Part shown: one piece after another, positions 1-50,000 of the stretch | Layout of the letters: every line of letters starts with the position of its first letter | Numbering within the stretch: position 1 is the stretch's first letter | Assembly: GCF_964204645.1 (NCBI RefSeq) | Contig: NC_134027.1 | Location: forward strand, 682,001-746,000 | DNA from: Tubulanus polymorphus | Lineage: Eukaryota; Animalia; Nemertea | DNA: 64,000 bases | Direction: 5' to 3' | Program-made: the position numbers and the translations under genes | Notes under the pieces: model-generated | Database searches by the model: none | The model's input: the letters and a program-made list of their open reading frames with translations, nothing else | Told to the model about the DNA's origin: nothing

Positions 1-245
1 AGAGAAATAGTGGATGTGGTGTCCCTGGACCCCTACATGCACCATATAGAGAATTAGTGGATGTGGTGTCCCTGGACCCCTACATGCACCATACAGAGAA
101 TTAGTGGATGTGGTGTCCCTGGACCCCTACATGCACCATATAGAGAATTAGTGGATGTGGTGTCCCTGGACCCCTACATGCACCATATAGAGAATTAGTG
201 GATGTGGTGTCCCTGGACCCCTACATGCACCATATAGAGAATTAG
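1..245. repeat. 47-bp tandem repeat (end of array)
   Basis: Unit AGAGAATTAGTGGATGTGGTGTCCCTGGACCCCTACATGCACCATAT, about 5 copies visible. Confidence 0.95.
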
Positions 246-317
246 TTCACTGAACCAGAATAAGACTGACTGATATATTTTCAAATGATTTAATATTTTT
301 ACTTGTTTTTCTAGAAT

Positions 318-3300
318 ATGCCAAAAGCCATAAAAAAAACACGGGGCACGGGCCCCTCACATTCGAGCCCGTATAATAAAGTAAGTACAAATTTACTGCT
401 TCCATGCTTATTTATTCATCCAATACTTAGTATTTTGTACCCCTGGGTCCAGTTTCACAAAAAGGATTAACGCCTAAATCGATTTAAGATAAACTGAATT
501 AATGAAGAAATTAAATCGATTTAAGAGTTAAACCTGTTTGTGAAACTGGGCCCTGAATTGCATCTAGAATGAAAAAAAAGAAAAAAAAATATTGAAAATA
601 ACGTTGGTGAAATATTTCTGGATCTTTCTGGATTTCTGCTCAATGCATCGTTTAGTAAAATATCGATATTCTCTAAAAGTAAAGATATAAGAATAAAAAT
701 ATTGTATTGAATCGTGATTAGTTACTGTATGCGCTGCTAGTTGTTGCCCAACCCATAGCCTCATTTCTCTCCATTCTAAATTTGCATTGTTTAACATTGC
801 CTGGTTGCTATGGAAACTATTTATTTAAGTTTCTTTGTGGTATCCATGGCAACAGTAACGTTTAGGTAGTGGCACCAATTATGGGTCCCAACGTTCCCAT
901 GGCGATACATGAGAACATTTATCCTATTTTTGACCTTCATGACGTAAGATGGTAGTGAGTCGATGACGTCATTTTCGTCTCACCACTAATGAAAAAAAAA
1001 AAATGAAATGAAAAAAAAGGAAAAAATGGTTAGAATTACGTTTATAAAATTTTTCTGGATCGGCTAAATGTATTGTTCGATTAAATATCGACATTCTCTA
1101 AAATCATAGGCATCAATATCAAAATGATGATACAGCAGACTCCGCTTAACTCTGTTCTATTTGGACCATTAATTAACCGAATACCGACTTTTTAAATTTT
1201 AGGATTTTAACTTTAAGGATCAGAAAATGTGTATGCAATATCAACCGGGTACCGAGTAGGGTGGCCGAGTCTACTGTAGTCTGCTGCCCCCTCGAATCCA
1301 TTACCTTATTATCTCTCAATTTGCATTGTTTGACCTCGTCTGGTTGCTATGGAAACTATTTAGTTATATCAGGAACGGTTTTTTCGAGGTAACCAGTGGC
1401 AACAGGCGTGTCCGTCCTAGAGATAAACTGTCTGATTTCACAGCCACATCCGTCCTGGAGATAAACTGTTAGATAAACTCTGATTTCGCGTCCGTCCTAT
1501 TTCTTGTCATTGTATGAATATGTTTTCTCTTTTATAGAGAACTCAACAACAACAACAACAACAGCAACAACAACAACAACAACAGCAGCAACAGCAACAC
1601 AAATTTGATATTTCTATGTCTGGGATTGACGTAAGTTATCGTAAACGCCTGTTTGAAGTCATCATTCTTGAGCTTGAAACCGAAATTTATATATATAGAA
1701 TATTAAACCCTGCTTCTGCTACTGACAGGTAATGTCCGTCATACATTACTGCATCGTCAAATCTATACCAGGGTGCACCCAGCCTGATCGTTCGCATCAT
1801 CACATGCAAAGGGCTGATTATTTTGGAACCCAGTTTTTATCAGCTGGAACATTCTGCACATTCGACCATATTGATTGATAGCCCGTTATAGACGAGTGGA
1901 GAAAAACTGGAAAACCAGTTCAATGTTACCTCATGGTAAACATAAGGGAATTTCAATGAGTTTAACTCACATTTACAGAGTTTTAACGAGGTTAGACTGA
2001 ATTAACCATTATTCCATCAATGGTGTGTTCTGTCCATCAAGGCTCCTCAGACGCACCGAGCAGTCAAATGCAGCAGTAGCGCGAGGGTCGGGTGTTCTCG
2101 TGTGGGCAGACGGTCCGAACCCCAAAACCATTTACTTACACTATACAAATCAGATCAGGTTTTTAACATTGTCTTTGATTGTATTTTCAGTTTCTGCCGA
2201 CAACGCCGCCAAGCGGTACTTCTACGCCGGTAAGTGATAACTATTTTCTAATAAATCACGCTTATTTCAATTTGTAATTTGAAAATAGAGGGCAGTAGCT
2301 GTTTTGCATAAATTATGCTAATTAGGAATAAATTCAAATTCGATTAAGTCTCATCATCGTAGAAGTCATATATTAATGATGCTATCTCTACAGTTGTCAT
2401 TTAAATTAAGTGTTATATTTACTACTTAATTTGCTTCATGACCCAAAAGCCTCTACTATATAACTACTGGTTTTGTTCTAATCTTGGAGAATTTGCTGCA
2501 AAATTAACTTATCATTCGTTAATCAGTTTTTATTGAAAACCCGAATCAGTGATACATGCATTCATGAATATCCATCTAATATTTTGTTTTATTTTATCTT
2601 TACAGGATTTATCACCGATACAGCACGTGGACGTAAGACATTAAACATTGATCTTGAATTTTAAGTTCAAACTAATTTATTTTTTATCTCACTCGGGACT
2701 ATAGTTATTGCGTTCACTTTGCGTCCAGTTGTCTCGGCTAGTTTTTGATTTATCGTGTTGATAATTGGTTTATATACTCAAACTACTCAAACTCAAAATA
2801 TTGGCACAATTGGAATTAAGATGGCGGACTTGTATGACCATTTTTTTCCCCGGCAAAATCAGCGCTTTAGGATCAATTCTGTTGTTGTTATATTACATTG
2901 AAATCAGAGTTTAATATATATCAGTATAGAGCAGGTTTTTGCTCTAGTTATAAATAAAGTTATAAATAATCTCATGACATGTTCTGTATATGTGTAGCGA
3001 GTTTCAATGTCTTTGGTTCCTTTTAAACCAGGGGGAGTTAAATTTGTAAATGTCAGATCGTCGAGCATTTCAGACCACTTCCAAAGTGGGTCCCTGCACC
3101 CCTAGTTATACCGTTAATATTTTAATAATACATTAATATTTTTATTTGATAGAATATATTGATATACCATACATTGATATCGGTCTTGTAATTGGATCAA
3201 CAACCATGAGATCAAAACACAGCAAATATGAACCTGCTGTGAATCAATAGATTTGTGATAAATGTAATGAAATTGTTATTTTTCATATTGACTTTTTGAG

Positions 3301-6300
3301 TTAAGGGTCTGTTGTATAAGAGTATTTGGTCTCGCGTGTCAATGTATGATATCAATCTGTTGTATTTCCTCGTTCCAATGTTTAAAAGGTGTTCGTCACC
3401 TTATATTAATATCCTCCGTGTTTAAAAACCTGTGCGTATTACTTTTACCGTTAGATGGCGCCATAAGTGTGATATTTGATATATGGGATACCCGCAAAAC
3501 CAGCTATTCCACCAGATGGCGCAACGAGTAGTAGGTCGTTCGTTGTCAAAATTAGTTCATTTTCGATGAACTTTGAACTGGTTTGAAGAAGAAATACTTT
3601 CATTCTTCTACTCTGATATCGGTTTAGTTTTCATTAATAATTGATTCATTTAAGAGAACAATTCATTCAGATTTAATTGAAATGTACAAGAAAATCGAAC
3701 GCAGACGACCAACTATTTACTAGCGACACCTGGTGGATCCTCGCCTGCCATAAGTGGAATCCTCGATTGCCACAGTAAGACTGCGGGTATCCCATTGTTT
3801 GGCGTGTGATAAAGTAAAGTTAGAAAACGAATGTTTAACTTTGTTGTGAAATGAAAGCGTTTTGGAGATTTTTAAACCGATCAAATCAATATTTTGATAT
3901 TACGCTTGAAACCCTTCCCACTCATATTCTGCTTACTAAGTATATATTCTAGTTTCCGTGGAAATCATGGTGAGTGGCGCCATCTATACAGTGGAGTTAG
4001 CTTTATAAATCGAGTATGATTCGACAAGTGGCTCCATCCATTCCCTAATACTGAAGCGAGGTAACCAGCAGCGCCCTCATATACAGGAAATGAACGCCTA
4101 TCAAGTTTAACAATGCACGGTGTATTGACCACAGCGACCGGTGATAATTATATCAATGTTGATTAGCTATTGCCATAGACAGGTCCGTAGCGTTTGACTG
4201 GACCAGAACGGGGCCCCCTAACCAAAACAAATTTTGAAAACGTGCCCAGATAAATTGCCTCTGGGAGATTGATTAACGAGGTTTTGATTGAATGAACAAA
4301 TTTTAATATTTGTAAGTTTAACATTTCTGTTTTTAATTTTTCTTTGTAAGGAACTGAATTTTCGAACCCCCCTGAACCGCTTCAAGCTACGTTCCTGATA
4401 TAGTGCTAGCTATACCTGAATACTTTTCTCTTATTGAAATTGTCTAAAAAACCAGCACCTTGAACTAATGAACGTCATAATGAAAATGTTTAAAAATTCA
4501 ACCGTTAATGAATTTGACTAATGTATCTTTTTTATTTTCATTTCTAGCGTCAGTTTGCCTCAGAGGCTGGGTCGCCGTCGCTTAATGTAAGTATCAGTGA
4601 CGCCCTCAATCTCACATGCCTCACTTCCCTCCTAATGTAACCATTTTTATGAAATTCCTCAAGAAAATATATACTGATAATCTTAGAATACACGTTTTTG
4701 TACCCAGACCCCTTCATTCTACTGAACTACCGTGTAATCAGTACCTGTTGTGTTCATTTTCTGTTGCATTGATTTATATATTATTTCTATTTATAGTTGT
4801 CAAACAACAGCAGCAGCAGCAGCGCACCCCTCCCGCCGGAGACGCCTCCCGACCTGCAAGCAAGAAGTAAGTTCAGTCTTCAAATACAATTTCAACGCAT
4901 TCAATTTTTTGTATGGCGTTAAAACGGTTAAAGTTGTGACTAGTTTTCATAACTCCGTGACGTCAGGTGTGAGACAAAATACAATATCATATTTCCATCG
5001 AGTACCGGACCCTTTCCTATGTTTTTTGCCAATTTGGATTGAATGATCGCCAGCGGTTTTTCTATACGACCCGGCTCTGCTGTATTGCATTTAGCCATCC
5101 TTTTTCTTGGCGTTTTTTATAAGAAGGTGTTTGATTTTGTCTCTAAGGGATTTAGGAATTTAAGAGACACTTGTACTCTCTATGCAGTGAGTTTGTTCTG
5201 TTTTTGTTCCCTCGTGAATTTTATTTTTGTTTGAATCAAATCAAATCAGTGCATCTTTCTTGAATTGCGTGTATGTTATAATATTATGTAAGTTATAACG
5301 TTAAAATATCTGTTATATTTAAACCGAATATTTAATTGTTGTATTTTGAATGCGATAATGCCGCTCCCTGCTAAAGTCCAGCGTCGTCGTCGTGAGGGAT
5401 GCGGTCATCTGTTCGGGCCCTGATTACGTTCTGTGTTCATCCTGTTTGGCTACATCGGGCGTTATATGAGTTAATCCTTCCTGGACTTGCGGATTGTGGT
5501 CGGAAGATCTATGGGTTCGGGCCGAGAAGTCCCAGAAACAGAAAGTACAGTTTCTGTCGATGTACCGATTGATGTCTCTATTTCAGAAAGTAACAGCGGT
5601 CGCCAGCTGTACTAGCACGGTTGGTTTCCCAACTCCATTCTCTGAGGAGGATCGCTGGTTCTCTAGTGCCGGTCAGTCACCAGTCAATCAATGGTTCAGC
5701 TGGCATCCCAGGGTACTGAACATCCAGTCCGGTCCGGTCCAGGCATCACTGGGAACTGTACATCCAGTCTGGTCCGGTCCAGGCATCACTGGGTACTGAA
5801 CATCTGGTCCGGTCCGGCAGCTTTGAGCACCAGTCCATTCCAGACATCACTGGGTACTGAACATCCAGTCCGGTCCGGTCCAGGCATCACCGGGTACTGA
5901 ACATCCAGTCCGGTCCGGTCCAGGCATCACTGGGAACTGTACATCCAGTCCGGTCCGGTCCAGGCATCACTGGCAACTGTACATCCAGTCCGGTCCGGTC
6001 CAGGCATCACTGGGTACTGAACATCTGGTCCGGTCCGGCAGCTTCGAGCACCAGTCCATTCCAGGCATCACCGGGTACTGAACATCCAGTCCGGTCCGGT
6101 CCAGGCATCACTGGGAACTGTACATCCAGTCCGGTCCGGTCCAGGCATCACTGGGAACTGTACATCCAGTCCGGTCCGGTCCAGGCATCACTGGGAACTG
6201 TACATCCAGTCTGGTCCGGTCCAGGCATCACCGGGTACTGAACATCCAGTCCCGTCCGGTCCAAGCATCACTGGGTACTGAACATCCAGTCTGGTCCGGT

Positions 6301-9300
6301 CCAGGCATCACTGGGTACTGAACATCCAGTCTGGTCTGGTCCAGGCATCACTGGGAACTGTACATCCAGTCCGGTCCGGTCCAGGCATCATCAGGTACTG
6401 AACATCCGGTCTGGTCCGGTCCAGGCATCACCGGGAACTGAACATCTGGTCCGGTCCGGTCCAGGCATCACTGGGAACTGTACATCCAGTCTGGTCCGGT
6501 CCAGGCATCATCAGGTACTGAACATCCGGTCTGGTCCGGCCAAGGCATCATCAGGTACTGAACATCCGGTCTGGTCCGGGCGGCCTGGCATCAATGTTTC
6601 GAATTTGAAACATAGTTATTATGACTCTAGGTTTGGTAGAGGGCGCTATTCTACCAGACGCAGGAGTAAGGTCACCTTCACTGATATCGAGGATGGATCG
6701 AGAGATTATGATTTATTCTGTAGGAACCATCATCATTCATCAGTTCACGTCGAGGGACCGTTTAGGAAGTTCATGTCTTTCACGTCGAGGGACCGTTTAG
6801 GAAGTTCACGTCTTTCACGTCTAGGGACCGTTTAGGAAGTTCACGTCTTTCACGTCGAGGGACCGTTTAGGAAGTTCACGTCTTTCACGTCGTGGGACCG
6901 TTTAGGAAGTTCACGTCTTTCACGTCGAGGGACCGTTTAGGAAGTTCACGTCTTTCACGTCGAGGGACCGTTTAGGAAGTTCATGTCTTTCACGTCGAGG
7001 GACCGTTTAGGAAGTTCATGTCTTTCACGTTGAGGGACCGTTTAGGAAGTTCACGTCTTTCACGTCGAGGGACCGTTTAGGAAGTTCATCTCTTTCACGT
7101 CGAGGGACCGTTTAGGAAGTTCACGTCTTTCACGTCGAGGGACCGTTTAGGAAGTTCATGTCTTTCACGTCGAGGGACCCTTTAGGAAGTTCATGTCTTT
7201 CACATCGAGGGACCGTTTAGGAAGTCGTCACAATAATCGGGATTTCCGTGATTTCGAAAGTAAGATGTTATTGTCATTGTAAGCTACCGCAGTTACAGGT
7301 AAGCCTATTCTTGATTGCCCGGTTAGAAGTTCAGTTATTCGGAATTCTGACTCTGAATTTCTGAGGGGTAGCATCTGATTTCAACGAGGATCTAGTTCCT
7401 GCAGCAATAAGCTTCGGGTTGCCGCTCACAACGGAAGCTCGTAACACGGTTAGCCATGCCTGCAGGGGATATGCTATTTTTTACCCCTCAGCCATAGGAC
7501 GCAAGGGGTAAAAAATCACTTATGTCCGGACGGGTGGGCTGTTTGTTTTTGACATATACAGGTCATCCAAGATGGCCGCCACAGCCATTGCAATGTGTTA
7601 AATAGCCATTTGAAGCTTGTTATCGCTCTACAGACTTAAGTTTTTCATTGATTTTCTTGTGACTTGGTTTGTTTGTTTGAGGTGTGAGATGGATGAGCCC
7701 TATTATTTTTGACATATATTGGTCATCCAAGATGGCCGCCACGGTTGTTTTAATGTGTGAAATAGCTATATTTTGGAGCTTGTTTTCCACTGTACAATCT
7801 ACAGTTTTATACTGATTTTCTTATCACGTGCTATGTGGATTGAAGGCATAAGGATCGATGAACTCTACTGTGTTTGATGTGTGTAGGCCACCACAGTTAT
7901 ATCAGTGTCTTGAATAGCCGATTTGGAGCTTGTTACTGCTCTAAGATGTAGAAGCTTAGAGGATTATAATTTTATTCATACTTGTACTGTGGTTTATTTA
8001 TGGTGGTCAGAGGATGAGCCCTATTACAATTTTGCATTCTCTACTTGACTCACTGGTCAAGGGTTAATATCTAGTTTGTTAAATGTGGAGAAACTCGTGC
8101 TAAGTCCTCGGCAGGTCCCCATGTCGGTGAATCACCACCACCCCCACCCCCCGGACTTTGATCTCAATATTTTGCGTGAATCGTCAGCAGTTTCAAGAGA
8201 ATGGGCTCGATTAGGTGTGGAACAATTGGAATCCTCGATTGCCACAGTCGAACCTAGAGTATTAAGAGCTCAATTAGGTTCGTCTTTGCGTCTCTTCTCC
8301 GGTTGGAGTGCTCCAGTTTTGACCAAACGGAGGAATATTCGAGAGGTGCAGATTCAAGTCAACCATGCGGACTCCGTGAAGTACTGGTCCAGCTCCAGCT
8401 CCGACAGCTGAAGGTTCAGCTCCGGCTCCGACAGCTAAAGGTTCAGCTCTGGCTCCGGCAGCTCAAGGTCCGGCTCCGGCAGCTCAAGGTCCAGCTCTGG
8501 CTCCGGCCGCTCAAGGTTCAGCTCCGGCTCCAGCTCCGGCCGCTCAAGGTTCAGCCCGAACTCACACAATGCCATCTCAAGCATCTTACTTTCTCAAGCG
8601 GCTACTGGTGGTTGGAGAACAAGTGCACAGCTCCAACATTCTCGTGCCCCTTCTGGTCAGAATAATTCTAATTCATATCACTAAAAGGAGCTCTTCCTCT
8701 CGGAGAAACTCAAAATGAATGCTCGGGGCCAGTGAGAGGTTGTCTGCAGCAGGCAGCCACTGGTCCGTCGGTCCCGGGTCGTATCACGGAGGCTACTGTC
8801 TTCAATTCTGAACACCTCTCGACATGCGCCCGAAAGCAGATCAGGAGACACTAATCTCGTCAGCTCTCAAAGATCTGGCCAAAAAGAGAGCAATAGAACC
8901 AGTACGCGACGAAGCCACATCCGGCTGGTTTTCATGAAAATTTATGCTCCTGAAAACCACAGGGCGTCGATGGACTGTCATTCCTCGAGCGGCACCTGGA
9001 TATCCCGAGGCTTCCGATGACTAAAACAGGGAGGTAATTCAAGGTCTCCGTCGAGGTTAATGGGCGGCTGCATTGGACCTGAAAGATGCATATTTTCAGG
9101 TTCCTGTTCACCCGAAATCCTGTCAATTTTACAGAATAAAAGTTGAAAGGCTGCCAGTTCCAGTTCAGGTCTCTTCCAATCGGCCTCAGTACAGCCCACG
9201 CCCTGGGTATTTACCAGCTTGGGTCAAGTCCAGAAGGTACATTACAGTCCAGGGCTGGGTTTCATAGATATGGAAGAAAAATAATTCCAGGGAACATTTT

Positions 9301-12300
9301 GAAATTTGTCAGTTATAACCATGGTTTCTCATTGTTAGTATGGTGGTTGTTACCAAGATTGAGGATTTACCCCTAGGGATAACTTTGATACTCAGTCTAT
9401 GAAACCGGGTCCTGGAGTATTTGTCTGTTGGTTTACCTCGACGACTGGTTACTAGTACCAAACTCGACTATAGAATGTCAGGAGGCGAGGACCGCTGTCG
9501 TAGACTTAGTTCACCAGTTCCGCGTAAACTAAGTAAAATCTCACTTGATGCCATCCCAACAGTTCACATCTCCGGATCAGCACGGTCTTTCCGTCCATGG
9601 CTCGAGTAGCCAAACTTCAAGAAGCGTAGTTACCACAAACGAGAGGACAGCTAGTTATCGGTGACGCCTGTGGCTAAATGCAATACCGCAGTGCCAGGGA
9701 TCGTATCTCTGGCTATCTACACATTCAGAGAATATTAACTAAAACCATAGGAAAGGGTCAAGCACTACTCCGAAAAAAAACTAATTTTATTTCCAAAAAA
9801 TTATGATATTATATGGATTGCATGCTGTGTGGAAGAAGTTTTCAAAATTATTTAGGAGCTTATTATAATTTGAATGCATGAATTGAGAGCAATTTGAAAT
9901 GTATTGATATCCGAAAGTGTCTCCATTGACTTCACTCATTCACCTGATGAAGCTTCTATACATTAGTACCCAAAGCTTGTGTGTCAAATAAACTAGTTAC
10001 ACGTCCTATAAAGTACTACTTGTCTCGTTATATATTCTAAACCCCAGTTAACAATTCCAGTAAGTCAGGTTTAGGGAATAGATATTTAAACCTTGAGATG
10101 ATACCAATGTGATACAATTCCAGTAAGTCAGGTTTAGGGAATAGATATTTAAACCTTGAGATGATACCGATGTGATACAATTCCAGTAAGTCAGGTTTAG
10201 GGAATAGATATTTAAACCTTGAGATGAAACCGATGTGATACAATTCCAGTAAGTCAGGTTTAGGGAATAGATATTTAAACCTTGAAATAAAACCGATGTG
10301 ATACAATTCCAGTAAGTCAGGTTTAGGGAATAGATATTTAAACCTTCAGATGAAACCGATGTGATGCAATTCCAGTAAGTCAGGTTTAGGGAATAGATAT
10401 TTAAACCTTCAGATGAAACCGATGTAATACAATTCCAGTAAGTCAGGTTTAGGGAATAGATATTTAAACCTTCAGATGAAACCGATGTAATACAATTCCA
10501 GTAAGTCAGGTTTAGGGAATAAATATTTAAACCTTGAGATGATACCGATGTAATACAATTCCAGTAAGTCAGGTTTAGGGAATAGATATTTAAACCTTGA
10601 GATTAAACCGATGTGATACAATTCCAGTAAGTCAGGTTTAGGGAATAGATATTTAAACCTTGAGATGAAACCGATGTGATACAATTCCAGTAAGTCAGGT
10701 TTAGGGAATAGATATTTAAACCTTGAGATGATACCGATGTGATACAATTCCAGTAAGTCAGGTTTAGGGAATAGATATTTAAACCTTGAGATTAAACCGA
10801 TGTAATGCAATTCCTGTAAGTCAGGTTTAGGGAATAGATATTTAAACCTTGAGATGATACCGATGTGATACAATTCCAGTAAGTCAGGTTTAGGGAATAG
10901 ATATTTAAACCTTGAGATGATACCGATGTGATACAATTCCAGTAAGTCAGGTTTAGGGAATAGATATTTAAACCTTCAGATGATACCGATGAATTTAGCA
11001 ATTTTGAATGAATTAAACCAATATGAGATTTCGATCCTAAGAATATTGGAAGCTTGTGTTTAACGTTACTAAATAGTAATATTATATAAAGCTAGAAGGA
11101 CACGAGGGTATCCATTTTTTTGCCCGATCGCAACGATTAAATTTGCCGGTGAATTTATACGCCCGATACGAGTGGGTACCGATCTATCTATAAATCGGCC
11201 GTCACGGTGATTTCGTCGCCCGCCAACATTAAACATGTTCTATATTTACGCCGGTGTTCGGGTCACTTGTTAATTCGCTCGTCTTGTCGGCAAGCTTAAA
11301 AAGATTTAGAAAAAACTACATATTCTTCTTCCTGAATAAACTGGATTCACCTGGGTTCAGTTTCATGAGACACAGTTCAAACTGCTCTTGAATTTGAGTT
11401 TGTAATTAATGTATGTGATTATAATGAATTGTATTTTTTGTTTTACAGCACTGATATTTAGATTGAGTCGTGCGTTCCGGCGGGAGGAGTTCGTACGCTT
11501 ATTTTTACCGGAGTGTAAGTAGTTTAACTATTTTCATACAATATCATTTAGTGTGACGTGTGTTACTGATCCAGGAATTTTTCCAAGAGGGGGTTCATAA
11601 TAATCCTGACTTAAATCTCTAATGATAGCCGGGGCCTATACGGCATATTGTTTGGCCAAACATAAGATCATATGGTACCGGTTTTTTGGCTTTTCTCGCG
11701 TAAGCATTTACATTCCTTCAAGAAAACTAATTTTTAGAATTTTTGGTAGCTGATCAGCGGGGTCACGACCCCTGAAACCCTCCCTGGATCCGCGCCTGTG
11801 ATATCTCCTCAAAATCTAATAAAAACATTCAACAAATTAATGCTATAATGACGATATGTAGCCTGTTATATCTGTCTATTTGAATGCATTTGCATAAAGA
11901 AATAGTTGCGGAATTATCAACTGCAAATAACAGTGTAACCCTAGTGGGTCTTAAGAGACGGCCAGAGCCTTTTTATAGGTTGTTATGGCTCACAACCTGA
12001 CTGAGTTAGCTGTACGGACCTGTCAGATTAGTTACTTCTAGAAGTTATGTTAGTCACATTTTCTGACTATATTCTGGAAAACAGTGGAAGCTTGTATCCA
12101 CCCTAGATTAGAACCAATCAGAATAGAACCAATCAGAATAGAACCAATCAGAATAGAACCAATCAGAATAGAACCAATTAGAATAAAACCAATCAGAATA
12201 GAACCAATCAGAATAAAACCAATCAGAATAAAACTAATCAGAATAGAACCAATCAGAATAGAACCAATCAGAATAGAACCAATCAGAATAGAACCAATCA

Positions 12301-15136
12301 GAATAGAACCAATCAGAATAGAACCAATCAGAATAGAACCAATCAGAATAGAACCAATCAGAATAAAACCAATCAGAATAAAACCAATCAGAATAGAACC
12401 AATCAGAATAGAACCAATCAGAATAGAACCAATCAGAATAGAACCAATCAGAATAAAACTAATCAGAATAGAACCAATCAGAATAGAACCAATCAGAATA
12501 GAACCAATCAGAATAGAACCAATTAGAATAAAACCAATCAGAATAAAACCAATCAGAATAGAACCAATCAGAATAGAACCAATCAGAATAGAACCAATCA
12601 GAATAGAACCAATCAGAATAGAACCAATCAGAATAGAACCAATCAGAATAAAACTAATCAGAATAGAACCAATCAGAATAGAACCAATCAGAATAGAACC
12701 AATTAGAATAAAACCAATCAGAATAAAACCAATCAGAATAAAACTAATCAGAATAGAACCAATCAGAATAGAACCAATCAGAATAGAACCAATCAGAATA
12801 GAACCAATCAGAATAAAACCAATCAGAATAGAACCAATTAGAATAAAACCAATCAGAATAAAACCAATCAGAATAAAACTAATCAGAATAGAACCAATCA
12901 GAATAGAACCAATCAGAATAGAACCAATCAGAATAAAAGCAATAAATAGTGTTTTTTCTCGAGTAGTTGCCGAAGAAGCATAAAAATTTGATTCAATTTC
13001 ATTCAGATTTAAACAAACAAATCGAATTTCATTTCATTCAGCGCAAACTTCAAATCTAATTAAAATTTTGTTCAGTATGAATAAGTTGCAAATCATTGAG
13101 AGGAAAAAATAATTAATTGTGTTACTTAAAAAAATCACAATTGTGCTGTGTTTATCAAAACAGGAGACCACAGGACCTTTGGTCCTCTAGTATTCTTTTC
13201 CTAGTTATTCCAAAAACACTAAAACAGTCCAATCAGCGATGGCTGCCAGACCAACACGATTACATTGAAATCAAACTTAAGTAACATCAGGCGCCCCCTG
13301 TTGGAATAATATTCATAGCCGTAGCATCGAAACCATTCGACTTGTTGTTTAATGTATTTCTCTCTATTTTTATTTTACAGTTCTGCAAGTTTTAGAAGAC
13401 TGCCCCTTTGAGGATTTGGTGGGGGAATTCAAAAGAAACTTGGTTCCCGATAGGATATTACCACCACCGGTTAATCCTATGTCGCCCGCTGCTGCCCCTC
13501 CCCCACGTCCATTAAATTCGCCTCAGCAGCGGCCTGTCAGACAGCCGCCCCCGGCCGCCACTCGTTCGTCAGACAGAGTCCGGGGACGGCTGTTTGAAGG
13601 AGATCTGACGGAGGTAAGAATCTTTATTTGTTTTCATATTTTATTCAGGATATCAGTTGAAGTTCAGCAAATAAATTACCAGACCTGTAAACAGAAGAGT
13701 AGTTATAAATTTCCATTTGCGGGTAAAACCCCATAGTCGAAAACCTTCGGTTATTGATCTATATCTGCTTAAAAGACCAATGGTTGTACACACGAGTGCG
13801 AAAACTTATCGCTCAAACTTTGATTGTATCCATGGTAACGCGTACAGTATACTATGCGTGACTTACCGTTTCCTATCACTGGAATACAATACTGTTTTAG
13901 ACCATGAGCGCCATCTGCGGCGGTCATAACGGACTGAGTGGTGATTGGCTGAAATGCTCGTCTACCGTGGTGACGATTATTCGGTGTTACACGTGCAGCA
14001 GACACGTCTCTGAATATCTAACATTTGATTGTTGTAACTCATCGGGAAAAATATGTTTATGAGTCGATTTTTTGTCGAAATTTTGTTCGGCAGAAAATTG
14101 GCTGCATACGTCAAGAAGGCGGCTGATATTTGTATCGTGTGACCCCTCGTCCCGGTAATATGCCGACCCACGTACACCTGAGACCAGTTGCATAGTCAGA
14201 GCTTAGAATTAAGACCGTTTTAAGACCAACTTAGTTCTATAGCCAATCTAATAACTTAAGACCAGTCTTTAGATTTAAGACCACTTTTGGACTTAAGTCT
14301 TGACCATGGAATCGGCCCCAGATGCTTATTCCGCTGTATTGGATGCTGACGTGCTCGTGTCTTCCAGCAATGTTGTTATTCACCAAAAATATCATGTTTT
14401 GTTCGAATAACACGATTCATCTGAGTCTGGGTTTAACGGATGACACGTTCAAACAGAACTACGAAATCAATATCAGAAGTCCTTTTATATTGAAACGGTC
14501 CCAGAAGTCCCTGTTATAATGGGTACTTTTTCAAAAAAAGTAACGAGAACTCCGATGGCTTTCCGTATTCACCGAACTATTTCTATGAGCATCACTCGTA
14601 GATTAACCGAAACGCCACCTTGTGGCACGATATCCTAACTACGTATAGGTGTTTTATTTGCTGAATCGCTGGTTTCTCATTCTGATTTTTTATGTAGTGT
14701 TTAATTTTATACTAAACAAATTTTTCACTTTTTCTCTTTACAGACACGACCACCGCCAAAAAAAACTCGAACTAAAAGGAAAAGAAAAGTTGCGGTCGTC
14801 GTGGCTCCGCAGGGAGGAGGAGCAAGAGTGGTCCCGGCGGATGGTGCGGCTGACGAAGGTAATCGGGAGGAAGGGGAGGGGATAAATAGGAAGCGGCCGA
14901 GGAGGGATGGTGGTGGGGCTGGGGATGGTGCGGGTCCTGCTCCTCCTGCTCCTCCATCCGTATCTCGGGCGGTCACTCGTTCACTCGCCAAAAAGCTGGC
15001 GAGTGAACGAGTGGCCCGAGAGGTAGAGGTGGTGGCCCGACATACGGATGGAATGTGGGAGGAGCGGCTTCGTTCGGGGACAATTCCGGATTTGTTAACT
15101 GATTTAAAAAATATTCTTTCAGTGAAGGGATATTAG
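318..15136 (+). CDS. Spliced orphan gene, copy A (9 coding exons, 340 aa; polyQ, Pro/Ser-rich, basic NLS-like protein)
   Basis: Exons 318-380, 1538-1630, 2191-2229, 2606-2632, 4548-4586, 4797-4866, 11449-11514, 13381-13613, 14744-15136. Each follows a polypyrimidine-AG acceptor, all 8 donors are GTAAG, and phases (0,0,0,0,0,1,1,0) join into one stop-free frame: MPKAIKKTRGTGPSHSSPYNK/RT(Q18)HKFDISMSGID/FLPTTPPSGTSTP/DLSPIQHVD/RQFASEAGSPSLN/LSNNSSSSSAPLPPETPPDLQAR/TLIFRLSRAFRREEFVRLFLPE/FLQVLEDCPFEDLVGEFKRNL...GDLTE/TRPPPKKTRTKRKRK...LSVKGY*. Differences from copy B are mostly synonymous or in-frame. No known family recognised. Confidence 0.8.
446..552. mobile_element. PIF/Harbinger-like MITE
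   Basis: TIR GG(T/C)CCAGTTTCACAAA...TTTGTGAAACTGGGCC, flanked by a CTG/CTG 3-bp TSD. Confidence 0.7.
1133..1276. mobile_element. Tc1/mariner (pogo/Tigger-like) MITE
   Basis: TA|CAGCAGACTC...GAGTCTACTG|TA: terminal inverted repeats with a TA TSD. Confidence 0.7.
3483..3795. mobile_element. MITE-like element carrying a CTCF-like motif
   Basis: IR ATGGGATACCCGCA / TGCGGGTATCCCAT, plus internal IR TCCACCAGATGGCGC / GCGACACCTGGTGGA. Confidence 0.55.
4180..4398. mobile_element. Degenerate MITE
   Basis: Imperfect TIRs CAGGTCCGTAGC...GCTACGTTCCTG. Confidence 0.45.
5703..6590. repeat. 40-bp GC-rich tandem repeat inside the DIRS remnant
   Basis: Unit CATCCAGTCCGGTCCGGTCCAGGCATCACTGGGTACTGAA, about 21 copies with two interruptions. 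Also at ~52439-53326. Confidence 0.93.
6744..7225. repeat. 35-bp tandem repeat
   Basis: Unit CACGTCGAGGGACCGTTTAGGAAGTTCACGTCTTT, about 13.5 copies. Also at ~53480-53961. Confidence 0.95.
7477..8075 (+). mobile_element. Non-autonomous Helentron/DINE-like insertion within the DIRS remnant
   Basis: 5' TTTTTACCCCT...AGGGGTAAAAA inverted repeat, internal ~180-bp degenerate repeats (CATCCAAGATGGCCGCCAC), and 3' hairpin CTTGAC...GTCAAG followed by CTAGTT. AT-rich block interrupting GC-rich gag-like sequence. Confidence 0.45.
8386..8556. repeat. Short 18-24-bp GC-rich repeat (AAGGTTCAGCTCCGGCTCCGGCAGCTC-like)
   Basis: Source of the LKVQLRLRQ repeats in ORF 8303-8665. Confidence 0.8.
9253..9411. 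mobile_element. Harbinger-like MITE inserted in the DIRS RT
   Basis: TIR GGCTGGGTTTCATAGA / TCTATGAAACCGGGTC with CAG/CTG flanks. It sits between the RT GLSTA and YLDD motifs. Confidence 0.6.
9935..10035 (+). mobile_element. Penelope-like element 3' end / pLTR remnant with degenerate hammerhead core
   Basis: CACCTGATGAAG...CCCAAAGCTTGTG..CAAATAAA resembles the CTGATGA...CGAAAGCT..AATAAA end of Penelope pLTRs. GAAA is changed to CAAA. Confidence 0.45.
10050..10990. repeat. 63-bp minisatellite (about 15 copies; about 16 at 56787-57790)
   Basis: Unit ACAATTCCAGTAAGTCAGGTTTAGGGAATAGATATTTAAACCTTGAGATGATACCGATGTGAT. The inter-copy offset rises by exactly 63. Confidence 0.95.
12109..12940. repeat. 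15-bp CCAAT-containing satellite (about 55 copies)
   Basis: Unit TAGAACCAATCAGAA; source of the spurious EPIRI ORF. Confidence 0.97.
14181..14317. mobile_element. Harbinger-like MITE (degenerate)
   Basis: CTG|AGACCAGTTGCATAGTCAG...CTTGACCATGGAATCGGCCC|CAG imperfect TIRs with CWG flanks. Confidence 0.5.
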
Positions 15137-15190
15137 GTGCCTTGAACGCATGAGTCGTTCATGCGCGCCTAATATGCCTTCACTGAAAGA

Positions 15191-15589
15191 AAATCAACTA
15201 TAACATGTACCACATATTTTTTGATTTAATTTTAGTCCAATTCCACAATTATTTCGGCTTTCAATAGTGTCTTCAATTCTTTAAAGCCCAAAGCACCTTT
15301 TTGACTCAACATCCAGTATGAAGGTGGTCGGGAATTGGGCCTGTTTTCTTCGATTTTTGTATCCCGCCCAGCATACTGGTTGTTGACTCGAAAAGGTGCT
15401 CGCTCTGGGAGCTTATCAAAGGCAGGTGATGGGAAAGGTGCCATCACACACTCTCCTTTGATAAGTTTCCTAGAGTGTCACGGGCTTTAACGGATTGAAT
15501 TCACTATAATACCAATTTTCCAAAATCAATTTAATTTCTTTCAGGCCATTCTTTTTCCATGTTTTTCTGGTACATGTTATGGTTGATTT
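15191..15589. repeat. Inverted-repeat element just 3' of the orphan gene stop
   Basis: AAATCAACTATAACATGTACCA / TGGTACATGTTATGGTTGATTT (21 of 22 match), plus nested TTCAATTCTTTAAAGCCC / GGGCTTTAACGGATTGAA. Confidence 0.6.
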
Positions 15590-15759
15590 CCATTTTCGAA
15601 AATCCGGAATTGAAGCCGTTCGAAGTCGGGGGGATGGTGGTGGGGTTGGGTTAGTTTAGGGTTCCTCTCTGATTACCTTCTTTAGCTCATCATCCGTGCA
15701 GGTGGCGCTTGCTCTTCTAGCCGGTGTTCCCTGGGGTAAACATTTTAAATTAAAAAAAT

Positions 15760-16490
15760 AAAAAATTTAAAAAAAATTATAAAATCTTTAAAAATCTCAT
15801 CTCATTTCATCCAATTTATTTATTTGCGGGTGCGATCCCTATCGCACCCATTCATGTCATTCATCCAAAAAAAATTAAAAACTAAAAAAGAAAAAAAAAT
15901 ATAAAAATTTAAAAAATCTCATCTCATTTCATCCAATTTATTTATTTGCGGGTGCGATTCCTATCGCACCCATTCATGTCATTCATCCAAAAAAAATTAA
16001 AAAATTAAAAACAAAATAGAAAATTATAAAATCTTAAAAAATCTCATCTCATTTCATCCAATTTATTTGCGGGTGCGATTCCTATCGCACCCATTCATGT
16101 CATTCATCCAAAAAAAATTAAAAAATTAAAAACAAAATAGAAAATTATAAAATCTTAAAAAATCTCATCTCATTTCATCCAATTTATTTGCGGGTGCGAT
16201 TCGTATCGCACCCATTCATGTCATTCATCCAAAAAAAATTAAAAACTAAAAAGGAAAAAAAAATATAAAAATTTAAAAAATGTCATCTCATTTCATCCAA
16301 TTTATTTGCGGGTGCGATTCCTATCGCACCCATTCATGTCATTCATCCAAAAAAAATTTAAAAATTAAAAACAAAATAGAAAATTATAAAATCTTAAAAA
16401 ATCTCATCTCATTTCATCCAATTTATTTGCGGGTGCGATTCCTATCGCACCCATTCATGTCATTCATCCAAAAAAAATTTAAAAACTAGA
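15760..16490. repeat. ~121-bp tandem repeat (6 copies), each with a 9-bp-stem hairpin
   Basis: GGGTGCGAT-tcct-ATCGCACCC at ~15828, 15950, 16071, 16192, 16310, 16431 in A-rich spacers. Also at ~61920-62650. Confidence 0.9.
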
Positions 16491-16737
16491 AATTAAAGTT
16501 CTAAGTTTGTTGTTAGATTCTATTCAAAGAACGTTGTAAAGTTCTTAATTTGTCGTAAAAAACGTTTGAAAAAAAGAACTTCTTAAAGTTCTCAATCTGC
16601 CGTAAAATGCAATTGAAAAGATTATAACTCACATGAAAATTAAAACGATAAAATTATTGATAAATAATCATTAATAAAAATTGAACTTTGGTCTCGCAAT
16701 GTTTCCCCGTTATGCATTTTTTACTCGTCGTCAAACA

Positions 16738-17335
16738 TCGGCAGCTCATCGTCGATACTCGCAGCTCGATACACAACAGCAGTTCGTCGTCGATACACAC
16801 CAGCAGTTCGATACACGCTAGCAGCTCGATACACACCAGCAGCTCGTCGTCGATACACACCAGCAGTTCGTCGTCGATACACACCAGCAGTTCGTCGTCG
16901 ATACAGACCAGCAGTTCGTCGTCGATACACACCAGCAGTTCGTTGTCGATACAAACCAGCAGTTCGATACTCACCAACAGCTCGATACACGCCAGCAGTT
17001 CGTCGTCGATACACACCAGCAGTTCGTCGTCGATACACACCAGCAGTTCGTCGTCGATACACACCAGCAGTTAGTCATCGATACACACCAGCAGTTCGTC
17101 GTCGATACACACCAGCAGCTCGATACACACCAGCAGTTCGTCGACACTCACCAGCAGCTCGTCGTCGATACACACCAGCAGTTCGTTGTCGATACACACC
17201 AGCAGTTCGATACTCACCAGCAGCTCGATACACACCAGCAGCTCGTCGATACTCACCAGCAGCTCGATACTCACCAGCAGCTCGTCGTCGATACACACCA
17301 GCAGCTCGATACACACCAGCAGCTTGATACCAAAA
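16738..17335. repeat. Compound 18/21/24-bp repeat (CAGCAGTTCGTCGTCGATACACAC)
   Basis: Source of the CIDDELLV and SSSSIHT ORFs. Copy B (62899-63514) has 18 extra bp. Confidence 0.93.
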
Positions 17336-18302
17336 CAGCTTTTAGCTGGTGAAAACCTACCCCCCCATCGGGGTTAAACATGATCAAGCTATTATTCTAG
17401 GAATATAACTGTTGCAAGGGAAGTTAAGATTCATTAACCTAAACTTGATACAAAGAGATTATTGCTAATTATGAATTTCAAGGGTTTAAAAACTGATTTA
17501 AAAATCTTGAAAGACGCTCGGTCTCACTAGAGATTTTCATCTTAAAGATTTATTGTCCTCTTACTATTGTTTAGGTGATCTATAATTTGGTAAATGCTGC
17601 TGTTGGAAAGATGCCAGAAGAAAGTTGATTCATGCACATCTTCACTTCACGTATTTATTGCACAAGGCGCCGACTTGCACCTGCACTACACCATTCACAC
17701 TTCATCACTTCTGCATCTTTATCAATTAATTCTGGCATCTATTTGAAAATTACTTTAAACATCAGATCTCAAACTGAAACATTGAGGTATTGAATTTCAA
17801 ACTGAAATATCGAGCTATCGAATCTCGATCTCAAATGTTTACTGGAAGCCATATTTGATGTTGTATTATTCATCATAGATTGTTTAGTGTTTTCTGGCAT
17901 ATGCGGGCCATTTAAGATGGTCAGATAAATTCCCCGGTGGAAAATATATCTCGTGGAAGAGTCATGGAAATGAAAAATATCTTATGTAGATGTGAAGTTA
18001 GGAACCTTGCAACAGTTATTCCACCTGAGGATAATTTGATATAAGATGAATCAGTTATTGGATCATTTAACTGAAGCCAAATATAGTGAAAAATCTTAGT
18101 ACAAATTTGTCTCAAACTACAATTGAAAGGACTTATCACAGTTCTAATTCGACTCTAGGTGCGTTCAGAAGAACTTCTTAACAGTGAAAAAACTTGACTA
18201 AAAATCAGGAATCGACCCTGTTCATTGATAAGATTTGATCTTTATTTGAAGATTAAGAATCAAACTCGCTAATTCACAATTTTTGGTAGTAAATACTGTT
18301 GA

Positions 18303-22200: not shown

Positions 22201-23140
22201 GCAGAAAACCCGTTATCGCTGCTTTGCAGCTATATTTATCTTATGATTTTGTATGAAATGCTAATTTTTACATTTAAGTTTAAATGAGTTTAAAATCACG
22301 TTTCATTTGTTGTTTATTTTGTCTTTTCAGTTTTCAATTTGCCGAGATCAGTGGTCAGAAAACTGTTACAACGGAAACTAAGATATCAAAGACTTGATTT
22401 GGCAAAGATTGAAGAAATCCTGCAAAAAGATTATTCATGAATTGTTCATACAACTGTCAACATGGAGTTCATCTCACAAGCAAATTAGGTAATCATCTCA
22501 TGATTTTGTATGAAATGCTAATTTTTACATTTTTACATTTAAGTTTAAATGAGTTTAAAATCACGTTTCATTTGTTGTTTATTTTGTCTTTTCAGTTTTC
22601 AATTTGCCGAGATTAGTCGTCAGAAAACTGTTACAACGGAAACTAAGATATCAAAGACTTGATTTGGCAAAGATTGAAGAAATCCTGCGAAAAGATTATT
22701 CATGAATTGTTCATACAACTGTCAACATGGAGTTCATCTCACAAGCAAATTAGGTAATTATCTCATGATTTTGTATGAAATGCTAATTTTTACATTTTTA
22801 CATTTAAGTTTAAATGAGTTTAAAATCACGTTTCATTTGTTGTTTATTTTGTCTTTTCAGTTTTCAATTTGCCGAGATCAGTCGTCAGAAAACTGTTACA
22901 ACAGAAACTAAGATATCAAAGACTTGATTTGGCAAAGATTGAAGAAATCCTGCGAAAAGATTATTCATGAATTGTTCATACAACTGTCAACATGGATTTC
23001 ATCTCACAAGCAAATTAGGTAATTATCTTATGATTTTGTATGAAATGCTAAATTTTACTCGTTATTTTTTTACTAATAAGTTGACTTTGAAATCTTTATT
23101 TATTTCTTGTTTATTTTGTCTTTTCAGTTTTGAATTTGCC
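19230..23140 (+). repeat. Higher-order array of exon+intron-like cassettes (265/406-bp monomers, 1870-bp HOR)
   Basis: Acceptor-like TTTCAG| at 19383, 19789, 20054, 20460, 20725, 20989, 21253, 21659, 21924, 22330, 22595, 22860 (variant at 23127). Donor-like TTAG|GTAATT 147 or 158 nt later. Spacings 406,265,406,265,264,264 occur about twice. Confidence 0.9.
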
Positions 23141-30100: not shown

Positions 30101-30268
30101 ATCAAACATTCTTCTAACTGAGGAGGAATAAGTGAACAAACTACAGCGGTGTTACACACTCAATGTTACATGTACATCAGTTATATCTCAATTAGACTGA
30201 AACAATGAGTGAAACTTCTACAGTTACAATCTGACACAAATCAGACTGTGTCAGAAAACATTTTTACA
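27147..30268. repeat. Long inverted repeat: arms ~27147-27742 and ~29676-30268, spacer ~1.9 kb
   Basis: CAGATTGTAACTGTAGAAGTTTCACTCATTGTTTCAGTCTAATTGAGAT (27182) is the exact reverse complement of 30186-30234. Similarity continues with scattered mismatches for about 600 bp. Confidence 0.85.
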
Positions 30269-30507
30269 TTAGCTCCACGTGCTGAGTGGATGATAGACAT
30301 CATGAGACTCATCAAATTTTGAGAAATTAGTTTAATTGAAAAATTAATCTAAGCAATGTCTGTTTTTGCATTTCAGAGGTTGATGTTACCTGAACATGCA
30401 GTTCTGAGCTGACTCCAGATCAGGTGAGCATGTATGCAGTGAAATTGGATAAAATCATGAGATTTTCCAAGAGCTCTTATTATTGGAATTTTGTCTCTAA
30501 TAGCCCT

Positions 30508-33018: not shown

Positions 33019-33165
33019 CAGAGCTGCCAACTGTTACTGATTTTCAGTATTTGTAACGATTTTGTTACGAGAAATACTGATTTAGTTAATTCACATTTTG
33101 ATGAAATGTTACTGAAAAAAGCTCAATTTGTTGGTTATAACACTTTTCAGGGGTTGGCAGCCCTG
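33019..33165. mobile_element. hAT-like MITE with 6-bp TSD
   Basis: TAATCT|CAGAGCTGCCAAC...GTTGGCAGCCCTG|TAATCT. Confidence 0.7.
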
Positions 33166-46075: not shown

Positions 46076-46123
46076 TTGTCAATCATCATATCAAGATTTG
46101 CAATCCCAGTTGCCTTCACGTTT

Positions 46124-46984
46124 CATATAGAGAATTAGTGGATGTGGTGTCCCTGGACCCCTACATGCATTATATAGAGAATTAGTGGATGTGGTGTCCC
46201 TGGACCCCTACATGCATCATATAGAGAATTAGTGGATGTGGTGTCCCCGGACCCCTACATGCATCATATAGAGAATTAGTGGATGTGGTGTCCCTGGACC
46301 CCTACATGCACCATATAGAGAATTAGTGGATGTGGTGTCCCTGGACCCCTACATGCACCATATAGAGAATTAGTGGATGTGGTGTCCCTGGACCCCTACA
46401 TGCATCATATAGAGAATTAGTGGATGTGGTGTCCCTGGACCCCTACATGCACCATATAGAGAATTAGTGGATGTGGTGTCCCTGGACCCCTACATGCACC
46501 ATATAGAGAATTAGTGGATGTGGTGTCCCTGGACCCCTACATGCATCATATAAAGAATTAGTGGATGTGGTGTCCCTGGACCCCTACATGCACCATATAG
46601 AGAATTAGTGGATGTGGTGTCCCTGGACCCCTACATGCACCATATAGAGAATTAGTGGATGTGGTGTCCCTGGACCCCTACATGCATCATATAAAGAATT
46701 AGTGGATGTGGTGTCCCTGGACCCCTACATGCATCATATAAAGAATTAGTGGATGTGGTGTCCCTGGACCCCTACATGCACCATATAGAGAATTAGTGGA
46801 TGTGGTGTCCCTGGACCCCTACATGCACCATATAGAGAATTAGTGGATGTGGTGTCCCTGGACCCCTACATGCATCATATAAAGAATTAGTGGATGTGGT
46901 GTTCCTGGACCCCTACATGCACCATATAGAGAATTAGTGGATGTGGTGTCCCTGGACCCCTACATGCACCATATAAAGAATTAG
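46124..46984. repeat. 47-bp tandem repeat (about 18 copies), upstream of coding exon 1 of copy B
   Basis: Same unit as 1-245. Confidence 0.96.
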
Positions 46985-47056
46985 TTCACTGAACCAGAAT
47001 AAGACTGACTGATATATTTTCAAATGATTTAATATTTTTACTTGTTTTTCTAGATA

Positions 47057-50000
47057 ATGCCAAAAGCAATTAGAAAAACGCGGGGCGTGGGGCCCTCAAC
47101 ATCGAGCCCCTATAATAAAGTAAGTACAAATTTACTGCTTCCATGCTTATTTATTCATCCAATACTTAGTATTTTGTACCCCTGGGTCCAGTTTCACAAA
47201 AAGGATTAACGCCTAAATCGATTTAAGATAAACTGAATTAATGAAGAAATTAAATCGATTTAAGAGTTAAACCTGTTTGTGAAACTGGGCCCTGAATTGC
47301 ATCTAGAATGAAAAATAAGAAAAAAAAATATTGAAAATAACGTTGGTGAAATATTTCTGGATCTTTCTGGATTTCTGCTCAATGCATCGTTTAGTAAAAT
47401 ATCGATATTCTCTAAAAGTAAAGATATAAGAATAAAAATATTGTATTGAATCGTGATTAGTTACTGTATGCGCTGCTAGTTGTTGCCCAACCCATAGCCT
47501 CATTTCTCTCCATTCTAAATTTGCATTGTTTAACATTGCCTGGTTGCTATGGAAACTATTTATTTAAGTTTCTTTGTGGTATCCATGGCAACAGTAACGT
47601 TTAGGTAGTGGCACCAATTATGGGTCCCAACGTTCCCATGGCGATACATGAGAACATTTATCCTATTTTTGACCTTCATGACGTAAGATGGTAGTGAGTC
47701 GATGACGTCATTTTCGTCTCACCACTAATGAAAAAAAAGGAAGAAATGGTTAGAATTACGTTTATAAAATTTTTCTGGATCGGCTAAATGTATTGTTCCA
47801 TTAAATATCGACATTCTCTAAAATCATAGGCATCAATATCAAAATGATGATACAGCAGACTCCGCTTAACTTTGTTCTATTTGGACCATTAATTAACCGA
47901 ATACCGACTTTTTAAATTTTAGGATTTTAACTTTAAGGATCAGAAAATGTGTATGCAATATCAACCGGGTACCGAGTAGGGTGGCCGAGTCTACTGTAGT
48001 CTGCTGCCCCCTCGAATCCATTACCTTATTATCTCTCAATTTGCATTGTTTGACCTCGTCTGGTTGCTATGGAAACTATTAAGTTATATCAGGAACGGTT
48101 TTTTCGTGTTAACCAGTGGCAACATTTAACAGGCGTGTCCGTCCTAGAGATAAACTGTCTGATTTCACAGCCACATCCGTCCTGGAGATAAACTGTTAGA
48201 TAAACTCTGATTTCGCGTCCGTCCTATTTCTTGTCATTGTATGAATATGTTTTCTCTTTTATAGAGAACTCAACAACAACAACAACAACAGCAACAACAA
48301 CAACAACAACAGCAGCAACAGCAACAAAAATTTGATATTTCCATGTCTGGGATTGACGTAAGTTATCGTAAACGCCTGTTTGAAGTCATCATTCTTGAGC
48401 TTGAAACCGAAATTTATATATATAGAATATTAAACCCTGCTTCTGCTACTGACAGGTAATGTCCGTCATACATTACTGCATCGTCAAATCTATACCAGGG
48501 TGCACCCAGCCTGATCGTTCGCATCATCACATGCAAAGGGCTGATTATTTTGGAACCCAGTTTTTATCAGCTGGAACATTCTGCACATTCGACCATATTG
48601 ATTGATAGCCCGTTATAGACGAGTGGAGAAAAACTGGAAAACCAGTTCAATGTTACCTCATGGTAAACATAAGGGAATTTCAATGAGTTTAACTCACATT
48701 TACAGAGTTTTAACGAGGTTAGACTGAATTAACCATTATTCCATCAATGGTGTGTTCTGTCCATCAAGGCTCCTCAGACGCACCGAGCAGTCAAATGCAG
48801 CAGTAGCGCGAGGGTCGGGTGTTCTCGTGTGGGCAGACGGTCCGAACCCCAAAACCATTTACTTACACTCTACAAATCAGATCAGGTTTTTAACATTGTC
48901 TTTGATTGTATTTTCAGTTTCTGCCGACAACGCCGACAACGCCGCCAAGCGGTACTTCTACGCCGGTAAGTGATAACTATTTTCTAATAAATCACGCTTA
49001 TTTCAATTTGTAATTTGAAAATAGAGGGCAGTAGCTGTTTTGCATAAATTATGCTAATTAGGAATAAAATCAAATTCGATTAAGTCTCATCATCGTAGAA
49101 GTCATATATTAATGATGCTATCTCGACAGTTGTCATTTAAATTAAGTGTTATATTTACTACTTAATTTGCTTCATGACCCAAAAGCCTCTACTATATAAC
49201 TACTGGTTTTGTTCTAATCTTGGAGAATTTGCTGCAAAATTAACTTATCATTCGTTAATCAGTTTTTATTGAAAACCCGAATCAGTGATACATGCATTCA
49301 TGAATATCCATCTAATATTTTGTTTTATTTTATCTTTACAGGATTTATCACCGATACAGCACGTGGACGTAAGACATTAAACATTGATCTTGAATTTTAA
49401 GTTCAAACTAATTTATTTTTTATCTCACTCGGGACTATAGTTATTGCGTTCACTTTGCGTCCAGTTGTCTCGGCTAGTTTTTGATTTATCGTGTTGATAA
49501 TTGGTTTATATACTCAAACTACTCAAACTCAAAATATTGGCACAATTGGAATTAAGATGGCGGACTTGTATGACCATTTTTTTCCCCGGCAAAATCAGCG
49601 CTTTAGGATCAATTCTGTTGTTGTTATATTACATTGAAATCAGAGTTTAATATATATCAGTATAGAGCAGGTTTTTGCTCTAGTTATAAATAAAGTTATA
49701 AATAATCTCATGACATGTTCTGTATATGTGTAGTGAGTTTCAATGTCTTTGGTTCCTTTTAAACCAGGGGGAGTTAAATTTGAAAATGTCAGATCGTCGA
49801 GCATTTCAGACCACTTCCAAAGTGGGTCCCTGCACCCCTAGTTATACCGTTAATATTTTAATAATACATTAATATTTTTATTTGATAGAATATATTGATA
49901 TACCATACATTGATATCGGTCTTGTAATTGGATCAACAACCATGAGATCAAAACACAGCAAATATGAACCTGCTGTGAATCAATAGATTTGTGATAAATG

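Follow-up and report, generated by a model that had tools for sequence, protein, structure and literature searches.

The present analysis shows that the first coding exon of a multi-copy gene family carries a patch of divergence, 13 differences in 56 bases between two otherwise nearly identical gene copies, and that this patch is real and family-wide. The two copies, denoted A and B, lie in a window of 64,000 nucleotides, by which we mean the whole stretch of DNA analyzed here (Table 1). The pattern belongs to the mismatches between exon and flank genealogies known under ectopic recombination; what sets it apart is that it is mostly silent, spans very few bases, and involves many alleles.

Duplication and the Exon 1 Patch

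Self-BLAST of the 64-kb window together with alignment shows that A and B form a direct duplication with ~46.7 kb between them. With tandem arrays and indels left out, 61 substitutions are counted over 12,633 bp, and the divergence is 0.38% once exon 1 is excluded; this background is uneven, ranging from 0.18 to 0.61% by region. The copies have tandem arrays and a retroelement remnant in common, with 0.2–0.6% divergence over 17.8 kb, and a 15-bp tandem array is shorter in B than in A.

In exon 1, the alignment places the 13 differing bases within A316–371 and B47055–47110, at positions 316, 317, 329, 332, 334, 341, 348, 349, 353, 360, 361, 362, and 371 of A. Two of them precede the ATG, five are synonymous, and the remaining six nucleotide changes give K6R, T11V, and H15T, which reproduces in place and in class the 13 substitutions in 66 nt that the initial annotation had reported. 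Its description of the surroundings as near-identical is likewise borne out, A and B being identical on both sides of the patch (A238–315 and A372–576). The Poisson probability of at least 13 differences in 66 nt is 2e-18, and 20,000 random placements never gave 13 in any 66-bp window, the maximum being 7. The A/B differences thus cluster beyond chance in near-identical paralogs, as in interlocus gene conversion. Outside the tandem arrays, no other patch in the two copies is equally dense, the next densest having 7 differences in 66 bp (intronic, A14569–14605) and then 4 in 66 bp. The search for a third exon 1 match within the 64-kb window returned nothing beyond the A and B exons.

The intronic patch at 14569–14605 (60721–60762 in B), the second densest in the duplication, contains 7 substitutions and a 5-nt insertion. 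CpG decay was also considered as a cause of the exon 1 differences and explains at most ~3 of the 13.

Table 1. Coordinates of the duplicate copies, the exons of the predicted gene model, and associated features in the window
Feature	Position	Strand	Position in copy B	Remarks	Basis
Duplicate copy A	1..17822	+		starts before window	self-BLAST, alignment
Duplicate copy B	46740..64000	+		continues past window end	self-BLAST, alignment
Widest possible exchange tract	238..576	+		nearest flanking differences A237, A577
Exon 1 of A	315..380	+		AG before, GT after; ATG at 318; patch 316–371
Exon 1 of B	47054..47119	+		ATG at 47057; patch 47055–47110
Exon 1 cassette span	47011..47219	+		left breakpoints 47011–47056, right 47151–47219	joints and loose ends
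Exon 2, poly-Gln	1538..1630	+	48265–48357
Exon 3	2191..2229	+	48918–48965	+9 nt in B
Exon 4	2606..2632	+	49342–49368	A = B
Exon 5	4548..4586	+	51284–51322	A = B
Exon 6	4797..4866	+	51533–51602	A = B
Exon 7	11449..11514	+	58248–58313	A = B
Exon 8	13381..13613	+	59535–59767	A = B
Exon 9, coding to stop	14744..15136	+	60903–61295	synonymous differences 14758, 14768, 14773
Nested self-complementary region, ~920 nt	14810..15733	+	60969–61892	exon 9 and past stop; A = B

Gene Model and Neighboring Elements

Nine exons with AG/GT ends join into a single predicted open frame. It encodes 340 residues, with Pro, Arg, Ser, Ala, and Gln abundant among them, and outside support is limited to the junction of exons 1 and 2. 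Both copies in the window retain all eight introns and have one exon 1 each; the style of the introns suggests an animal-like host. The junction appears in a contig of run X4, which spans 47038–47118 with 3 other letters and continues with exon-2-like sequence from its exact first base; the exon-2-like part is diverged and has a shorter Gln run. Because the kind of run is not on record, the contig may represent either a transcript after splicing or a gene copy that lacks the intron. Since a near-B exon 1 is joined here to a diverged exon 2, exon 1 types are not bound to one gene body. No run is on record as RNA among those listed as carrying the gene, and exon 1 is not covered at 80% by X5. 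The putative AG acceptor of exon 1 is missing in one read variant, and the X4 contig includes 16 nt upstream of the exon start. The sole strong GTAAGT donor in 42000–47060 is found at 43668, where copy B may have a further exon upstream of exon 1.

At the start of exon 9, three synonymous A/B differences fall within 16 nt (14758–14773 versus 60917–60932), a cluster that is not significant alone. These differences sit in a Lys-Lys-Thr-Arg motif resembling that of exon 1.

Protein searches were carried out with separate pieces or exons. In these searches, no relatives of exon 9 were found among longer proteins, among 1.84 billion representatives, or in the ESM Atlas (low recognition, weak evidence), and none of exon 8 among longer proteins. 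Pfam on 10 pieces of the gene gives one sub-threshold match, DUF6508 (E 0.044), and a partial literature search returned no title describing this gene family.

The self-complementary region in and beyond exon 9 folds into a trunk with branch hairpins at −440 kcal/mol (z −14 against 20 shuffles). Among the 400-nt segments scanned from 1 to 46000, none is more stable than the one at 14801. Compared with shuffled sequence, folding is far stronger on both strands (z −11.7 and −10.8), and the G·T versus A·C test of RNA-level selection gives counts of just 1 versus 0. Rfam yields no match at gathering score across the window and 12 sub-threshold hairpin-type matches at 14700–16000. A function of this region as RNA, or a tie to exon 1, is putative.

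Several further elements are present in the window. Intron 6 contains, at 8700–9300, a decayed reverse-transcriptase-like remnant with stops and frameshifts, which we take to be DIRS-like from its motifs; Pfam on two short pieces of it gives no match. A palindromic MITE-like element in intron 1 (445–553 and 47184–47292) has a read depth of ~1,700, that is, a very high copy number. An array at 19278–23127, possibly a noncoding spliced repeat, consists of 12 units of 147/158 nt that resemble exons and are bounded by AG and GT; in the two units examined, every frame contains stops. A run of short diverged exon-like pieces in AG/GT context occupies 32500–35300, and an inverted pair of ~600 bp, 82% identical and ~2 kb apart, is located at 27143–27741 and 29677–30272.

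A and B Alleles in Independent Reads

The reads are taken from public runs of the same species label. Run X6 is raw DNA, of which 1,934 Mb (12% of the run) were used, and it comes from a different sample than the assembled individual. Each of the 13 B bases occurs among the X6 raw reads that match B to at least 95%, and the B alleles are therefore not a polishing artefact. Eight of A's 13 alleles are seen in the same reads; the other five (47087A, 47099C, 47100A, 47101T, and 47110G) are not listed there, being under 3% or clipped. This suggests that A's right half is rare in the X6 sample, and A's full haplotype is unconfirmed. B's T at 47088 is found in no Logan contig of X1 or X2, a type of contig that drops rare variants. 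In X6, intron alleles private to B are seldom seen (from 0/98 to 10/87 reads), which accounts for the exact B combination not being seen in that run. The initial annotation regarded one copy as overwritten, a view not borne out here, both A and B carrying minority alleles of the read pool, so that neither is plainly donor-like.

Silent Variation and Selection on Exon 1

Diversity was evaluated from the 270 X6 reads that pass a 95% similarity cutoff to B, a filter that understates exon diversity; partly overlapping reads mix haplotypes, and the values are not for whole-exon haplotypes. The mean heterozygosity in exon 1 is 0.152 at third, 0.034 at second, and 0.009 at first codon positions, and it reaches 0.36 over the three nucleotides that precede the ATG. 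The corresponding flank values are 0.003 (68 nt upstream) and 0.016 (62 nt downstream). Divergence is thus high in the exon and low in the intron, as in the opsin/RH type of divergence peak, and the near-invariant flanks supply homology arms around the variants, as for gene conversion. All four bases occur in the read pool at the four-fold sites 47068, 47080, and 47104, for which the chance is ~1e-5 or less per site under a flank-like mutation parameter of 0.016.

Fifteen of the 21 variant alleles are synonymous, versus 25% expected (P = 1e-5), and between A and B exon 1 has dS ~0.50, dN ~0.12, and dN/dS ~0.25. The synonymous excess, the dS and dN values, and the heterozygosity together indicate that exon 1 codes, that it is under purifying selection, and that its history is much deeper than that of its flanks. 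From these data we infer the age of the exon 1 variants and purifying selection on a basic N-terminus of 21 residues. The earlier suggestion of an older source for the variant exon is in line with the A/B values.

Variability in the reads sets in with the second base behind the AG, the preceding 23 nt having none, and the last very variable site, 47104, lies 15 nt from the nearly invariant start of the intron. In exon 3 of B, all six read variants among the top 40 of 276 entries are at third positions, the neighboring intron being also variable, and the 9-nt duplication of this exon is missing from many reads. The array at 19278–23127 (260-bp units) was used as a control; its exon-like parts have a diversity of 0.041 versus 0.057–0.105, that is, no extra variability, and the exon 1 effect is therefore not general to the region.

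Mutagenesis by diversity-generating retroelements (DGR) is adenine-specific, and that by AID is C-specific. The spectrum in exon 1 has no such base-specific character, the 13 changes consisting of 4 transitions and 9 transversions and four bases being present at third positions, which does not agree with enzyme-targeted hypermutation.

Family Size and Tandem Exon 1 Units

The unique intron 1 bins have a depth of ~125 in X6, corresponding to ~6 copies if the genome is assumed to be 100 Mb and to 26 if it is assumed to be 400 Mb; the gene family is multi-copy, with at least about 6 copies. The depth over exon 1 is 252–327, which is 2.0–2.6 times that of the neighboring intron 1. Four joints at which reads go back to an earlier position (47151→47056, 47158→47015, 47191→47018, and 47219→47026), several of them in more than one run, define exon 1 tandem units of ~117, 174, 183, and 194+ bp carrying parts of the flanks. 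One of these units restarts just upstream of the ATG, without the upstream AG. The joints are most simply explained by tandem arrays of exon 1 with partial flanks in other family members, although they may instead come from circles.

Loose ends in X6 comprise a foreign upstream side from 47011 in 23 reads and a foreign downstream side from 47158 in 9. Another 21 reads carry a third exon 1 variant, and 22 carry a fourth, the most diverged, which lacks the AG and one codon and keeps the common upstream flank. Over 30 sites, the third variant has 5 differences from A and 8 from B, compared with 7 between A and B, and the variants are roughly equidistant from one another. At least five exon 1 variants are present in the reads. 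The hidden multigene pool of diverged exon 1 variants postulated by the initial annotation accordingly finds support in the depth excess, the variants, and the tandem-unit joints.

Other sequence replaces exon 1 before intron 1 in 6 reads at 47119, and a joint 48687→47123 with a 37-nt insert (14 reads) places other sequence at the start of intron 1.

Reads at least 95% like B have a depth of ~73 at the exon center, and few of them have foreign ends. None of the loose ends listed (9 of 12) has foreign sequence starting at the borders of a B-like exon, and related exons have at least ~30–40 nt of flank in common. Exon-only homology, put forward earlier as a route of conversion, is not borne out by these ends.

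A Proposed Exchange of an Exon 1 Cassette

The explanation that we tentatively favor, with confidence that falls slightly short of even, is a DNA-level exchange of a short exon 1 cassette among the copies, with extra and tandem units supplying the older variants. The first coding exon of the family exists as many silent-site variants between nearly invariant flanks, and homologous recombination, using the shared flanks as arms, would swap a short cassette into a recently duplicated gene body. The source of the cassette would likely be the pool of older variants, the extra and tandem exon 1 units acting as a putative reservoir. The exchange itself would be gene conversion at the DNA level or a double crossover, with tracts of 56–339 bp, and the 17.8-kb duplication would be of recent origin.

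This exchange is supported by the identity of exons 4–8 in A and B alongside the exon 1 dS given above, and by the B-like exon centers, which are common in the reads and are also found with a diverged exon 2. No donor locus is present in the window, and exact exon 1 patterns have no match in metagenome contigs and none in viral contigs. The identical flanks allow a tract of 56–339 bp, and a stop at the exon borders, as previously proposed, is therefore unreadable from the A/B pair. In experimental systems, according to the available part of PMC3924818, conversion drops sharply near 80% identity and below ~200 bp of identity. Under these limits, a 66-nt, 80%-identical exon-only target would be a poor substrate, and flank-primed exchange would be easier. 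Swapping alone leaves the young flanks beside an old exon unexplained; either selection or a supply of old variants would be required in addition. A left border this sharp, at the second exonic base, is what a process delimited by exons would more readily predict, and such a process may also act.

It is also conceivable, although we regard it as unlikely, that nothing has been imported, and that old exon 1 lineages have been kept distinct by selection and mismatch blocking while recombination or conversion homogenized their surroundings. Divergent exons between homogenized introns are known, as described in the available parts of PMC3924837 and PMC3966226, and both the equidistance of the variants and the position of the most diverged one, a codon shorter, behind the common upstream flank would fit such a history. 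However, the amino acid differences are few and conservative, with the low dN/dS given above, and diversity does not decay gradually, as seen from the short distance between the four-base site 47104 and the intron. Piecewise homogenization of 17.8 kb, including the arrays and the retroelement remnant, is moreover less economical than a recent duplication. Cassette exchange and retained lineages differ mainly in how the old variants are stored, and both may act.

A less probable alternative is that mature mRNA or cDNA of older expressed paralogs templates the patches, exonic sequence alone being exchanged. The cDNA templating suggested by the initial annotation is hypothetical, although the onset of variability at the second base behind the AG and its fall before the donor are in its favor, as are the third-position variants of exon 3, the opening of exon 9 with its synonymous differences, the joined exons 1 and 2 in X4 (kind of run not on record), and the retroelement remnant in intron 6. 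As far as the available part of PMC4683709 describes it, such templating should be biased toward the 3′ end and remove introns precisely, whereas here the 5′-most coding exon is hit and the eight introns are kept. In the X6 DNA reads, no join of exons 1 and 2 is listed either; this covers 9 of 12 rows and leaves aside any joint that leads into the CAA repeat. The other exons have no enrichment of A/B differences (5 in 960 nt versus 43 in 11,607 elsewhere, P = 0.41).

Somewhat more doubtful still is that exon 1 is a hotspot of breaks or mutation, or a target escaping a nuclease or small RNAs at the nucleotide level, with purifying selection filtering the changes into silent saturation. At least six independent rearrangement breakpoints do cluster around a segment of 100–200 bp, and the three sites with four bases point the same way, but the local rate would have to be raised ~60-fold (13 in 56 versus 0.38%). 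The mixture of transitions and transversions has no base-specific signature, the exon-like control array in the window is not more variable, and no nuclease or small RNA has been seen.

Improbable as a conjunction of all its parts is a germline system that would diversify or swap a single 66-nt exon, delimited by its splice sites, throughout an orphan multi-copy family. It would draw on tandem exon cassettes or on transcripts of the family itself, ending in a large structured RNA, and silent-site variation would be an escape from a sequence-specific silencer or nuclease. Finally, it is very improbable that one variant was created in assembly or polishing by the collapse of paralogous reads, for which the absence of B's T at 47088 from the X1 and X2 Logan contigs, the five A alleles unlisted in X6, and the possibility of a chimeric consensus in a multi-copy family might be cited, because the changes respect codons, B's bases recur in raw reads, and the family-wide excess of exon diversity comes from reads, independent of the assembly.

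Relation to Known Systems

Divergence peaks under interlocus gene conversion are described for exon 5 of the human red/green opsins and exon 7 of RHD/RHCE (PMC3924837, PMC3966226). The present case resembles them, as the available parts of these sources present them, in having a divergent exon between near-identical introns of duplicated genes, but differs in having many variants rather than two, in being mostly synonymous (dN/dS as above) and 56 bp long, and in having no known functional difference. In the cDNA conversion described in the available part of PMC4683709, exon-delimited tracts would likewise result, whereas the window has neither the 3′ bias nor the intron loss. Tandem arrays of variable exons are found in exon 9 of insect serpins and in the variable exons of protocadherins (PMC3966226). 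Here too, the reads carry tandem copies of an exon with splice flanks, in other family members and as four going-back joints around exon 1, and diversity is concentrated in that exon. In contrast to those arrays, again as the available part of the source describes them, one unit has no upstream AG, the window copies have a single exon 1, and the alternative use of units is putative.

Schistosome micro-exon genes (PMC4350168) and the arrays of snake serum and venom genes (PMC6609765), for which the available parts of the sources give raised dN/dS, have small symmetrical exons, expanded families, and fast exon evolution in common with the present family. Unlike in those systems, exon 1 is here under purifying selection.

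The mouse H-2Kb microconversions are an example of short-segment conversion in the MHC. Conversion of short segments between MHC alleles or loci is covered in the available part of PMC3966226; in the present family, by comparison, no donor has come to light, nothing points to positive selection, and the product is a low-complexity orphan protein rather than a receptor.

In opsin, RH, and MHC genes, selection at the amino acid level accounts for exon trees that are far deeper than those of the flanks. In the present family, the depth is mostly silent and confined to ~56 bp, it recurs among many copies of an orphan gene, and tandem exon cassettes are found elsewhere in the genome. The family therefore offers a compact natural test of the minimum length of ectopic exchange in the face of 20–25% mismatch, of whether exon borders limit such exchange, and of whether RNA templates act in the animal germline.
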